From: a virus
IMG/VR virus record: IMGVR_UViG_3300032053_000003
Span: 1-30,391 of that record
Reading direction: 5' to 3' (one strand)
Length of the DNA: 30,391 nt
Shown here: piece by piece, positions 3 through 2,698 of the stretch
Position numbering within the stretch: the first letter of the stretch is position 1
Layout of the letters: every line of letters begins with the position of its first letter
Position numbers and translations under genes: made by a program
Notes under the pieces: model-generated
The model's input: the letters and a program-made list of their open reading frames with translations, nothing else
Database searches by the model: none
Told to the model about the DNA's origin: nothing

Positions 3-371
3 ATGAGTAAAGCCAGGTCTTTACTTTTAAAGGTTCAGGAAAGTAATAAGGTTTCCAATGAAGAAGTATATAGTATGGTTCAAAAGATACATAGGAACCA
101 TGATGACTTTGCTGAGGGTGATCTGGGAAAGAGGCTGGATAAGTATGATTATTATGAGCTGAAAGATATTGCTGTCTCTGATTTGGATTTGGATGAGTGG
201 GATGTAAAGGACTATCTGGTTGATAAGTTGATAGAGGAGATCAGAAAGAATCCCAGCTACCCACCTATTGTTGTTGGCAAAGACATGTCTATAATCGATG
301 GTATCCATAGAGCCAATGCTTTGAGTGAATTAGGACATAAGACAATAAAAGCTTATGTAGGGATTAAGTAA
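3..371 (+). CDS. ParB-like nuclease domain (ParBc/sulfiredoxin-like) mini-protein; N-terminus MSKARSLLL carries the shared MSKA-LLE-type motif
   Basis: C-terminal block PPIVVGKDMSIIDGIHRANALSELGHKTIKAYVG matches the ParB N-terminal nuclease-domain core (P-I-x-V ... IDG-HR-A ... LG ... I). ATG at 3. Stop TAA overlaps the next ATG (TAATG at 369-373). Confidence 0.6.
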   Translation: MSKARSLLLKVQESNKVSNEEVYSMVQKIHRNHDDFAEGDLGKRLDKYDYYELKDIAVSDLDLDEWDVKDYLVDKLIEEIRKNPSYPPIVVGKDMSIIDGIHRANALSELGHKTIKAYVGIK

Positions 372-2698
372 TGGATTTAACATCCATGAACATAAACCCT
401 AAGATCAAAAAAGCTTGTAAGAAGCTTTCCAAGCAAGAAGCAACTTACATGTTGTCTGATATAGAAGGCTACAGGGAGCCTTTAGTTGATATCAACCAGT
501 TCATAGAGGACCCTGAATATTTGGGTGGTATCCTGAAGGATGAGAACGGTAAGACCAAGCTGTTCTCAATATGGGTTGATGCTTTAAACAAAGTATTTCC
601 CAATCCTTATTATTCGCCGTACTACGAAGTGGCCTTTTCGGGGGCCATAGGAGGAGGGAAAAGCACAGTTGGCAGGATCATCCTGATCTACGATCTCTAC
701 AAGCTCCTGATGCTTAGGAATCCTTTTACCAAGTATCAGTTGATTGCCTCTGATGCTATTGTCATGGCTCTTCTGACAGCTAACTTGAACCTGGCTAAGT
801 TAGTACTTTACAGACCTTTTAAGGAGTTGATCAGGTCATCTCCTTTCTTTATGAAGCTATTGTTAAACAAGAGGAAGATTAATGAGGGGGGATCAATAGA
901 GTTTCCTAATAATATATCCATCCAGGCAGGTTCACGATTCACTCATGCCTTGGGTTTGGCAGTTTTTTGTTTGAAGGGTGATACAAGACTTCCTTTATTG
1001 GATGGTAGAATTAGAACAATTGAAGAAGTTGTAAAAGAATTTGAGACTAATAAGGACTTGTATACCTATTCTTTGGATATACAGACTAAATCAATAGTTC
1101 CTGGTAAGATTATTAAAGCAGTTAACAATGGTACCAGGTCTGTGTATCGTGTTCATTTTGATAATGGTAAATACATAGATGCCACTGACAATCATCCTAT
1201 TCTCATGAGGAACAATAAGTATAAAAAGGTTGAGGATTTGTCTATCGGTGATAGTGTTATGCCATTTGAAATGAGGATCAATGATGATGGTTATTATAAT
1301 ATAGTTAATCCTTATGATGGTATTGATAGACCTGTTCATAAGATTATCTATGAATATAAAAATGGTAGCATCCCTGTTGGGTATTCTGAGGGTTTGGTTC
1401 AGTCTCATAATCATAAAATTGTGAGTATAGAATATCTTGGTGAGTATGATGTTTTTGATCTTACAATAGATAAGTATCATAATTTTGCTTTAGATAGTGG
1501 TGTTGTAGTCCATAATAGTGGACTTCTTGATGAGGCTTCGTATCAACAGGAAGGAGAGTCTACTCACCAGGCTTATGATTCTTACATATCTATGTCAAGA
1601 CGTATGAAGTCCAGGTTTATGGAGATGGGTGGAGGGGTGCCTGGGCACCTGTGCTTAATATCTTCCAAGAAGGATGAGAATGCATTCCTTGAGGCTCATA
1701 TTATAGAGTGCAAGGATGATCCTCACTTCATTTGCTTTGAGTATCCTCTTTGGGAGGCTCATAAGGACAAAGGGATCTATTCGGGTGTAACCTTTACAGT
1801 GTTTGCTGGGTCTACTCTCCAGTCCCCCAGGATCATCGAGGATGGCAATATTACCAAGTATCCTAAGGACAAGATACTTAACGTACCTATTGAGTACCAG
1901 AGTGAGTTCAAGACTAATATAGAAAAGGCTCTGATGGACCTGGCTGGGACTGTAACGATCTCCAGCTCCAAGTACATTGCATTCCCTGAGAACCTTATGA
2001 AGGCTATCAGGATAGTCCACTGCTGCAATGTGACTGATCATATTATTCTGGACTTCTTCGATGACAAACGGATCATCGAATTTGTTGATGTACAGAAGCT
2101 TAAATTGTACCTTAACCTGCTGAGTAACTCCCCTCGGTACGTTCATATAGATATTGGTATCACTGATGACTCTTATGGTTTTGCCATGTCCTGTGTGTCA
2201 GGCATGAGAGAGGTCGAGAAGTTTGATGTGGAAGAGCTAATGGATAATCCTACAGGTACAGGTGTAGTGATGAGGGCTGAGCCTGTCATTCGTACTGAGC
2301 TGGCTTTGTCTATCAGGTCTACTACAAGAGTTCCATTGTGGAAGGTCAGGGACTTTATTGTGGATCTCACAGAGATGGGATTCCCAATTGTTAAAGTAAC
2401 TGCTGACTCTTTCCAGTCTGAGGATACCTTACAGCTCCTTACCAAGATGGGCTATGAGACTGATACCATCTCTCTGGATAAATCGAAAGATCCTCATCTC
2501 ACATTCAGGAATGCTCTTTATGAAGGTAGGTGTGAGCTTCCTGATTTCAAACTGATGATCAAAGAGTTCACTGACTTGATTGACAAAGGGAAGAAGTTTG
2601 ATCACAGCACTTCTGGGACAAAGGATATCACAGATGCTGTTGTAGGATCTCATTATACAGCTTTCCAAGCCAGTGGTTCGTTTATTGATATACAGTAG
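371..2698 (+). CDS. terL: Terminase large subunit (ATPase + nuclease), interrupted by an in-frame mini-intein
   Basis: Walker A FSGAIGGGKST. After removal of residues 200-382 the junction reads ...LGLAVF|SGLLDEAS, restoring a Walker B-like hhhhDE. Size and position (start of the structural module) fit a large terminase subunit. Confidence 0.75.
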   Translation: MDLTSMNINPKIKKACKKLSKQEATYMLSDIEGYREPLVDINQFIEDPEYLGGILKDENGKTKLFSIWVDALNKVFPNPYYSPYYEVAFSGAIGGGKSTVGRIILIYDLYKLLMLRNPFTKYQLIASDAIVMALLTANLNLAKLVLYRPFKELIRSSPFFMKLLLNKRKINEGGSIEFPNNISIQAGSRFTHALGLAVFCLKGDTRLPLLDGRIRTIEEVVKEFETNKDLYTYSLDIQTKSIVPGKIIKAVNNGTRSVYRVHFDNGKYIDATDNHPILMRNNKYKKVEDLSIGDSVMPFEMRINDDGYYNIVNPYDGIDRPVHKIIYEYKNGSIPVGYSEGLVQSHNHKIVSIEYLGEYDVFDLTIDKYHNFALDSGVVVHNSGLLDEASYQQEGESTHQAYDSYISMSRRMKSRFMEMGGGVPGHLCLISSKKDENAFLEAHIIECKDDPHFICFEYPLWEAHKDKGIYSGVTFTVFAGSTLQSPRIIEDGNITKYPKDKILNVPIEYQSEFKTNIEKALMDLAGTVTISSSKYIAFPENLMKAIRIVHCCNVTDHIILDFFDDKRIIEFVDVQKLKLYLNLLSNSPRYVHIDIGITDDSYGFAMSCVSGMREVEKFDVEELMDNPTGTGVVMRAEPVIRTELALSIRSTTRVPLWKVRDFIVDLTEMGFPIVKVTADSFQSEDTLQLLTKMGYETDTISLDKSKDPHLTFRNALYEGRCELPDFKLMIKEFTDLIDKGKKFDHSTSGTKDITDAVVGSHYTAFQASGSFIDIQ
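968..1516 (+). mobile_element. Mini-intein (183 aa, no endonuclease domain) inserted in terL at the Walker B motif
   Basis: Begins Cys (CLKGDTRLPLLDGRIRTIEEVV = block A). Block B TDNHPILM (TxxH). Ends ...YHNFALDSGVVVHN followed by Ser (+1 nucleophile). All in frame with the host ORF. Confidence 0.8.

Follow-up and report, generated by a model that had tools for sequence, protein, structure and literature searches.

Does the gene at positions 371-2698 (plus strand) of this viral DNA encode a long large terminase (TerL), or a terminase interrupted by an intein that has to splice itself out? The DNA analysed, which we call the window, is the whole stretch of 30,391 nucleotides, positions 1 to 30,391 of the IMG/VR record IMGVR_UViG_3300032053_000003. 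An earlier note, made from the letters alone, had proposed a mini-intein with a full splicing signature at the Walker B motif of TerL. Our analysis confirmed that the open reading frame (ORF) carries a class-1 intein at positions 968-1516. The ORF, the intein boundaries and the motif positions were all found in the sequence as that note had given them.

The inserted segment is absent from homologous proteins

A search with the protein spliced in silico returned 39 relatives. The intein-free homologues, 584-597 residues long and 62-87% identical, were colinear through the junction. Four of them, P0001, P0002, P0006 and P0009 (87%, 84%, 69% and 64% identical to the spliced window protein, respectively), read GLAVFSG(L/M)LDEAS at this position, or, in a wider form, ...SRFTHALG(L/M)(A/G)VFSG(L/M)LDEA.... 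Removal of the intein in silico gave GLAVFSGLLDEAS, the same as in these four natural proteins, which bears out the earlier proposal that excision joins LAVF (residues 196-199 of the precursor) to SGLLDEAS (residues 383-390) and recreates a Walker B motif of the form hhhhDE. The DNA of the window gene was 79% identical to that of the P0001 gene (L003:10001-11773), with one in-frame gap, which measured exactly 549 nucleotides at window positions 968/969-1516/1517. The intein-free L003 site reads GGTTTGGCAGTATTC↓TCTGGGCTCCTGGATGAG (here and below the arrow marks an insertion point or splice junction), with the longer downstream form TCTGGGCTCCTGGATGAGGCA. The insert is in frame and translatable, and therefore an intron explanation is unnecessary.

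The segment could alternatively be read as a native terminase domain, or as a non-splicing Hint domain of the bacterial intein-like (BIL) type, and its being in frame is the only support for such a reading. Intein-free terminases that keep the segment, which the earlier note had named as the finding that would speak against an insertion, were sought in an alignment of 30 intein-free family members that includes the spliced window protein (A1; identities to the spliced window protein 26-87%). None of the intein-free rows had a colinear counterpart; the segment was absent and the junction colinear in these members, an outcome that favours insertion. In addition, the canonical HN↓S C-terminus and the position of Cys1 at a conserved catalytic motif follow the intein pattern. 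The native-domain reading was thus ruled out by the intein-free homologues, and we leave it practically no probability.

The segment carries a complete class-1 splicing signature

The precursor of 775 amino acids plus stop begins with an ATG that overlaps the stop codon of the upstream ORF (TAATG). Its N-extein (positions 371-967, residues 1-199) ends in ...GLAVF, and is followed by the 183-residue intein (positions 968-1516, residues 200-382). Block A of the intein, CLKGDTRLPLLDG, occupies positions 968-1006 (residues 200-212) and opens with Cys1, the nucleophile of the N-S acyl shift, which is invariant among the orthologous inteins. Block B, GKYIDATDNHPILM, lies at positions 1166-1207 and includes TDNHPIL (residues 272-278, positions 1184-1204), where the TxxH motif corresponds to T272 and H275 of the precursor. 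The C-terminal splicing region with blocks F and G, NHKIVSIEYLGEYDVFDLTIDKYHNFALDSGVVVHN, spans positions 1409-1516. It closes with VVVHN (residues 378-382, positions 1502-1516), containing the penultimate His381 and the terminal Asn382, and is followed by Ser383 (Ser+1); with the +1 residue, this end of the intein reads DVFDLTIDKYHNFALDSGVVVHN↓S. All class-1 splicing residues were therefore intact in intein numbering as well: Cys1, Thr73/His76 in block B, Asp164/His171 in block F, His182, Asn183 and Ser+1.

The Pfam comparison that the earlier note had proposed was also positive. The excised 183 residues matched PF14890 (Intein_splicing) with 74.1 bits and E=1.4e-20, above the curated cut-off of 35.8 bits and well outside what chance would give, and the match spanned profile positions 2-155 of 155. 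In a phmmer search the intein was similar to solved DnaB, DnaE and PolC mini-inteins over the A/B and F/G blocks (4o1r, E=7e-8), with TDNH of block B aligned to TGNH and TANH of the DnaB inteins. The window intein forms one continuous ORF, and a split-intein arrangement with its halves in separate ORFs was not found. The same 775-residue precursor was present in three independent metagenome assemblies, from ERZ27247916, JGI 3300031772 and ERZ27247880, in one of them on a contig of 230,776 bp, and the intein is therefore not an assembly artefact.

We also compared the ratio of non-synonymous to synonymous substitution rates (dN/dS) in the two parts of the gene. For the intein it was 0.081 between the window and P0019 (80 codons) and 0.078 between P0007 and P0008 (186 codons), and for the extein it was 0.059. 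These values indicate that the splicing domain is subject to purifying selection. Intact catalytic residues, low dN/dS and an identical precursor in three assemblies are in line with expectation for a circulating phage with a functional intein in one of its essential genes.

The host protein is a large terminase interrupted within the Walker B strand

We modelled the spliced protein with AlphaFold (AF2) on the basis of the 30-sequence alignment, and the model had a predicted local distance difference test score (pLDDT) of 84.4. When this model was compared with the PDB using Foldseek, all 28 matches at E <= 0.001 were large terminases. The top match was the HK97 terminase (6z6d, E=6.7e-15, probability 1.00), and T4 gp17 (3cpe, 6.5e-14), the D6E terminase, models of the T7 terminase, and the nuclease domains of the G20c and P74-26 terminases (E=2.6e-6 to 3e-4) were also recovered. 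Template modelling (TM) scores over the full length were low, 0.3-0.4, as expected because this is a two-domain protein with a flexible hinge. A tblastn search of 50,697 phage genomes found TerL homologues in 346 records; the best matches covered 92-97% of the length at 30-37% identity, and many were annotated as terminase large subunit, among them proteins of Rhizobium RHph phages, Escherichia phage IME392, and Vibrio and Maribacter phages.

The family alignment agrees with this assignment. In the model, a strand passes into a helix at the Walker A motif or P-loop, GAIGGGKST (residues 91-99, positions 641-667). The family alignment has no variation at G91, and conservation of G96 and K97 reaches 90% or more. 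The motif was identified from conservation, the model and a weak alignment with T4 gp17 that is described below. In extein numbering, the invariant columns of the family are D204, E205, S248, S249, D411, D496, D569 and D572. S248-S249, the C-motif, follow the strand after Walker B, while D411, D496 and D569/D572 are the acidic residues of the RNase H-like nuclease. In the C-extein (positions 1517-2695, residues 383-775), which opens with Ser+1 and with SGLLDE, the remainder of Walker B, the C-motif appears as LISSKK at positions 1655-1672, and the nuclease motifs as HIDIG (2141-2170), TADSFQSED (2396-2425) and KDITDA (2615-2650), all on the plus strand. Head and packaging genes surround TerL: the gene of a T4-like portal is found 3.8 kb downstream, and the adjacent ORF 2708-3472 matches virion-structural and baseplate-wedge families. 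A small terminase was not recognisable in this genomic context. Because of the fold matches, the annotated phage homologues and the invariant TerL columns, we consider the identity of the host protein as a phage large terminase settled, in agreement with the earlier note.

The position of the intein within this protein was likewise as proposed. The model shows a single beta-strand at residues 197-204 of the spliced protein, which ends in the invariant D204-E205, and the insertion lies between F199 and S200, inside this Walker B strand and five residues before the Asp. The first half of the strand is supplied by the end of the N-extein. The five codons directly 5' of the insertion point (GLAVF, positions 953-967) and the eight codons directly 3' of it (SGLLDEAS, positions 1517-1540) together make up the presumed homing site, as delimited by the junction comparison of alleles.

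The mini-intein retains a remnant of an HNH endonuclease

The earlier note had argued that 183 residues leave no room for a homing endonuclease domain. This was correct for a complete domain, which is absent; however, the linker retains an HNH_3 remnant of about 18 residues. In the linker (intein residues ~100-147), residues 122-139 matched positions 2-19 of the 46-position HNH_3 profile, weakly and below the cut-off (E=0.02-0.08; VHKIIYEYKNGSIPVGY). We place the remnant, VHKIIYEYKNGSIPVGYS, at positions 1334-1387 on the basis of this match and of the alignment with the P0008 intein. The catalytic His/Asn core is deleted: a complete HNH core was not found in the window intein, where the segment HTIHHKD...NNKLNNL of P0008 is missing.

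Inteins at the same insertion point (AVF↓C...HN↓SG) were found in P0008, P0007 and, as a partial sequence, P0019, and they were 64-79% identical to the window intein. The P0008 intein is 268 residues long, 64-78% identical to the window intein, and contains a complete HNH_3 domain (44 bits, E=1.6e-11), whereas the P0007 intein of 186 residues lacks exactly the 82 residues that hold the HNH core. As P0007 and P0008 are otherwise near-identical (dS 0.29, dN 0.023), the P0007 deletion must be recent. The presence of an HNH_3 stub in the linker and of a full HNH_3 domain in the orthologous P0008 intein argues that the window mini-intein is a deletion product: it is a decayed derivative of a homing intein, and not primitively small. 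The window intein is ~35% diverged from both P0007 and P0008, and the boundaries of its deletion and of that in P0007 lie ~3 residues apart; most simply, we infer that the window intein lost its HNH core in a separate event.

The intein and extein identities to the window were close to each other, 79% and 83% for P0019 and 65% and 70% for P0007, respectively, and the closest extein relatives of the window TerL have no intein. Since intein identity roughly tracks that of the extein while the closest relatives are intein-free, the history of the element mixes vertical descent with gain or loss.

The alleles were also compared at the codon for the +1 residue. The Ser+1 codon is AGT in the window, and AGT or AGC in the intein-bearing alleles of the window, L006 and L008. 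It is TCT in three intein-free P0001-type alleles, all of one lineage. This comparison covered four intein-plus and three intein-minus alleles, and the downstream junction could be read in three of the intein-plus alleles, as L007 ends within the intein. The codon switch, which needs two substitutions, might reflect co-conversion of the flank or loss of the endonuclease target.

Proposed mechanism and alternative explanations

Taken together, we propose that ORF 371-2698 encodes a TerL precursor, with an N-terminal packaging ATPase of the additional strand, conserved glutamate (ASCE) class and a C-terminal RNase H-like nuclease, and with a self-excising, HNH-derived mini-intein at Walker B; for this mechanism as a whole we estimate a probability of about 0.88. 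Splicing would begin with an N-S acyl shift at Cys200 (precursor numbering), followed by trans-esterification onto Ser383, cyclisation of Asn382 aided by His381, and an O-N shift producing the peptide bond between Phe199 and the serine. The expected product is a TerL of 592 residues with the junction GLAVFSGLLDEAS found in intein-free homologues. As the Walker B strand would be continuous only in spliced TerL, ATP hydrolysis and DNA packaging probably need splicing, and the geometry of the insertion suggests that the precursor is inactive and unable to hydrolyse ATP. That packaging depends on splicing, as the earlier note also put forward, would likewise follow from where the insertion lies within the Walker B strand. 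The ancestor was presumably an HNH-type homing intein targeting the Walker B site of this TerL family, from which a deletion took the HNH catalytic core and left the 18-residue stub. The mini-intein has probably lost autonomous mobility and would be unable to home on its own; it may persist because TerL is essential and would be inactive if splicing were lost.

Several points weigh against this interpretation. Splicing of the window TerL precursor is itself deduced, from the conserved residues and the low dN/dS, and not observed. A single-sequence AlphaFold model of the intein alone reached a pLDDT of 34.7 and was unusable, and sequence similarity is what supports a HINT fold here. With regard to the host protein, the spliced extein matched no terminase family in the local Pfam or PHROG libraries, a profile search with the family alignment found only noise and no terminase among PDB sequences, and the homologues carry Pfam PF27249 (MJ0330_N), an entry that is not named as a terminase. 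The alignment of the family profile with T4 gp17 by hhalign was sensible but weak (E=0.17) and serves as a consistency check only: it placed GGGKST on QLGKTT 163-168 of gp17, with the P-loop on K166/T167, and AVFSG-LLDE on NSFAMIYIDE, with D204/E205 on D255/E256, which we take to be the Walker B Asp and the catalytic Glu of gp17. The equivalence of the insertion site to T4 F249↓A250 accordingly depends on motif logic plus the fold match. Finally, the intein does not stand out in composition. The G+C content at third codon positions (GC3) was 0.235 in the intein and 0.485 in the TerL exteins, with a window mean of 0.364 and a standard deviation of 0.129; at z=-1 the intein is no outlier, and several other window genes have values of 0.19-0.25. 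Composition was for this reason rejected as a proof of foreign origin.

Given these reservations, one can ask whether the intein has simply died, leaving a non-functional TerL precursor in a defective phage or in one that uses another terminase. The endonuclease domain has already decayed, and splicing is deduced, which would be compatible with such a loss. However, all class-1 residues listed above are intact, the ORF is uninterrupted, dN/dS within the intein is ~0.08 with exteins equally constrained at 0.059, the identical protein occurs in three samples, and the window ORFs that were examined included no further TerL homologue. We therefore regard a dead intein as very unlikely. Only slightly less improbable, in our opinion, is that splicing is conditional, a post-translational switch that delays or gates the terminase until some intracellular condition occurs, in which the portal intein described below might take part. 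The arguments for it are that TerL and portal, both parts of the packaging machine encoded in the window, carry related mini-inteins, that purifying selection acts on the TerL intein although it has no endonuclease, just as the portal intein has none, and that regulatory roles of active-site inteins have been proposed in the literature (PMC5050341). On the other hand, purifying selection is fully accounted for by the requirement for splicing in a gene that is essential, the single Cys (Cys1) of the TerL intein offers no obvious intramolecular disulfide trap, and the close relatives P0001 and P0002 do without a TerL intein, which is hence dispensable. The idea that rate-limiting or condition-dependent splicing acts as a checkpoint timing packaging-motor assembly in a large phage is for us similarly far from probable.

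The remaining alternative concerns mobility rather than splicing. The mini-intein could still move in trans, if the HNH endonuclease of P0008-type inteins, or free-standing endonucleases of co-infecting phages, cut intein-free alleles that are then repaired from an intein-bearing allele. Full-length and deleted versions coexist in near-identical genes (P0007 and P0008, dS 0.29), the distribution is sporadic (present in the window, P0019, P0007 and P0008; absent from P0001, P0002, P0006 and P0009), and homing in trans of an element with a defunct endonuclease is documented for phage T4 (PMC2790892). Nevertheless, trans mobility is pure inference for this locus, and the rough parallel between intein and extein divergence fits vertical descent with occasional precise loss as well. 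We thus consider it doubtful, although it is the most plausible of the alternatives, and continue with the preferred reading of a spliced, immobile mini-intein.

Inteins at other sites of the PF27249 TerL family

An exhaustive HMMER search yielded 3,600 clusters (50% identity) of the PF27249 TerL family at E <= 0.001. In BLAST comparisons, the window intein matched 38 of the 185 family members that were collected, so that about 20% carry an intein, and some members contain three (e.g., P0125, 1,788 residues, and P0175). Intein relatives were recovered by BLAST against these 185 members and by tblastn against phage genomes. A word-index search with the intein alone returned none, only 23 word-sharing candidates, which reflects a limitation of the index, since P0007 and P0008 hold inteins 64-78% identical to that of the window.

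Insertions of at least 100 residues occurred at no fewer than seven positions in the survey of collected members: ~85-87, ~91-110 (the Walker A region), ~160, ~199 (Walker B), ~334, ~496-499 and ~566 in spliced-protein numbering. The sites at ~496-499 and ~566 adjoin the nuclease residues D496 and D569; in P0014, for example, an intein of the nuclease domain lies between G566 and K568 (HSTKG↓C...HN↓SKDITDA). The exact Walker B junction was occupied in at least eight surveyed representatives, with the pattern F/Y/H↓C...[H/S]N↓S/C-x-x-h-[D/S]-E. The insertion in P0140 lies two residues downstream of this junction, and in P0019 the Walker B intein was seen at its N-terminal junction only, due to the contig end.

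The closest relative of the window intein among deposited phages is found in gp022 of the Bacillus phage SP-15 (L002, KT624200.1), a TerL homologue deposited as a hypothetical protein. It is 43% identical to the window intein, in two pieces around a large insert, and it is located in the N-terminal part of the protein, upstream of Walker A, where the sequence runs ...YFEV↓CLSG... and resumes with TGGIGLGKST. Inteins at this site (site c) are also present in P0010 and P0019. The site-c inteins belong to the same lineage as the window intein and interrupt the same TerL family; their insertion point, however, precedes the Walker A lysine by 13 residues (E↓C...HN↓CAF-GxIGxGKS), in contrast to the Walker B position in the window. 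The inteins of P0010 and P0019 are ~420 residues long and 41-44% identical to the window intein in the N-terminal part and 56-61% in the C-terminal part, and that of P0010 has an HNH_3-like core, which scored below the cut-off. The family may thus document intein movement between sites within one gene, as one intein lineage is present both upstream of Walker A and at Walker B. It may also show colonisation of the terminase nuclease active site by inteins, which was unseen in the 2016 survey of mycobacteriophages discussed below.

We also noticed that the same Walker B site is where a TerL homologue of the Bacillus phage vB_BceM-HSE3 (L001, MF418016.1, 31130-34092) is interrupted. Its N-extein and N-intein (...GKDVF↓CLTGSTK...) end in a stop codon, a 90-residue ORF (gp055) follows, and the C-intein and C-extein (...SGVVVHN↓CAMLDE...) continue in another frame, so that the record annotates three genes. 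Either the intein is naturally split here, as a 'fractured gene', or frameshift errors have produced this arrangement.

Comparison with known inteins

Phage TerL inteins at such sites are already well documented, and the window case is a correct, well-supported call of a known element; what is understood about inteins or terminases stays as it was. In mycobacteriophages and actinophages, no protein hosts inteins more often than TerL (PMC5050341; 10.1101/2025.01.02.630785). Kelley et al. (2016, mBio) described seven sites in mycobacteriophage TerL, all in the ATPase domain and one of them, TerL1-e, in Walker B; representatives spliced efficiently in a reporter, and the sites were found incompatible with pentamer assembly; these authors likewise argued that the precursor cannot hydrolyse ATP (PMC5050341). 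TerL1-e resembles the window intein in being an ATPase-domain intein at a catalytic motif of a phage large terminase. However, the mycobacteriophage hosts belong to Pfam Terminase_1, Terminase_6 and Pham3880, while the window extein matches none in the local Pfam library and belongs to PF27249; the endonuclease lineage of the window intein is HNH_3 (HNH rather than LAGLIDADG), and its host is an uncultured phage represented by a contig of at least 230 kb. The two inteins are set side by side here by description and not by sequence.

In a 2025 survey of actinobacteriophages, 293 TerL inteins were recorded and portal inteins were also reported; class-1 inteins ranged from 134 residues upwards, and degraded endonuclease domains were seen (10.1101/2025.01.02.630785). 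That survey covers actinophages only, and its TerL sites, where described, are helices of the ATPase domain, whereas the PF27249 family has sites in the nuclease domain as well.

The best PDB sequence matches, the DnaB mini-inteins of Npu (4o1r) and Ssp (1mi8), share the class-1 Cys1...HN arrangement and are similar in size to the window intein, although their host is a replicative helicase and the local identity is only ~25-35%. In the Ssp DnaB mini-intein the endonuclease was removed by engineering, in contrast to the natural deletion in the window intein.

What is new here is the setting. The TerL family is a different one and poorly annotated, the phage is uncultured and has at least 230 kb, the endonuclease lineage is HNH, full-length and deleted inteins form a natural series at one site, and relatives have sites in the nuclease domain. 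The series includes the empty site, an intein with intact HNH and two HNH-deleted mini-inteins of apparently independent origin, which makes the PF27249 TerL family useful material for studies of the homing cycle and of site switching. For annotation, the gene should be recorded as one terminase and not as a fusion or two genes (the vB_BceM-HSE3 locus was deposited as three), and it should be kept in mind that this divergent family escapes standard terminase profiles. A naturally minimised, 183-residue Cys1/Ser+1 intein with Phe at -1 is also a possible splicing tool.

A second intein, neighbouring genes and composition of the window

The window contains a second mini-intein, in the portal ORF at 6502-8838 (plus strand, 778 residues). 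It occupies positions 7561-8118 (residues 354-539, 186 residues in length) and is also of class 1, beginning with CFTADTEI..., with TYDH in block B and ...GVFVHN↓S at its end (Intein_splicing, E=3.9e-18). After its removal in silico, the extein matched Portal_T4 with 30 bits (cut-off 22.9 bits), consistent with a T4-like portal. The portal and TerL inteins share 30% identity, and homologous portal-type proteins of 777-787 residues with an Intein_splicing match occur in the relatives L003, L004 and L006. A tblastn search of the window with 13 inteins found the TerL and portal loci and no other.

Directly upstream of TerL, the ORF at positions 3-371 (plus strand, 122 residues) has a ParB-like nuclease motif (PHROG, E=9e-6 to 3e-4) and no Pfam match; because no recognisable small terminase is present, it may stand in the small-terminase position. 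Directly downstream lies the Laminin_G_3 or baseplate-like ORF at 2708-3472 (plus strand). The antisense ORFs within the TerL gene, 1091-1480 and 1655-2146, had no Pfam match, and neither Rfam families nor tRNAs were detected in the window.

GC3 was heterogeneous among the window genes, from 0.19 to 0.51 within 30 kb. The low-GC3 genes include the Laminin_G_3 or baseplate-like ORF and two paralogous phrog_27227 ORFs; the positions given for these genes are 2708-3472, 10711-11616 and 14307-15221 (plus strand). A megablast comparison of 25 kb of the window with 50,697 phage records found no related deposited phage, and the majority of the other window ORFs were uncharacterised. Two ORFs amid them could be assigned: that at 15287-16294 (plus strand) encodes a carbohydrate or ribokinase-like kinase of the PfkB family (Pfam, E=1.6e-41), and that at 23782-24642 (plus strand) matches a PHROG annotated as DNA topoisomerase (E=2.4e-57). 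Such cargo is unusual and would fit the genome of a large or jumbo phage.

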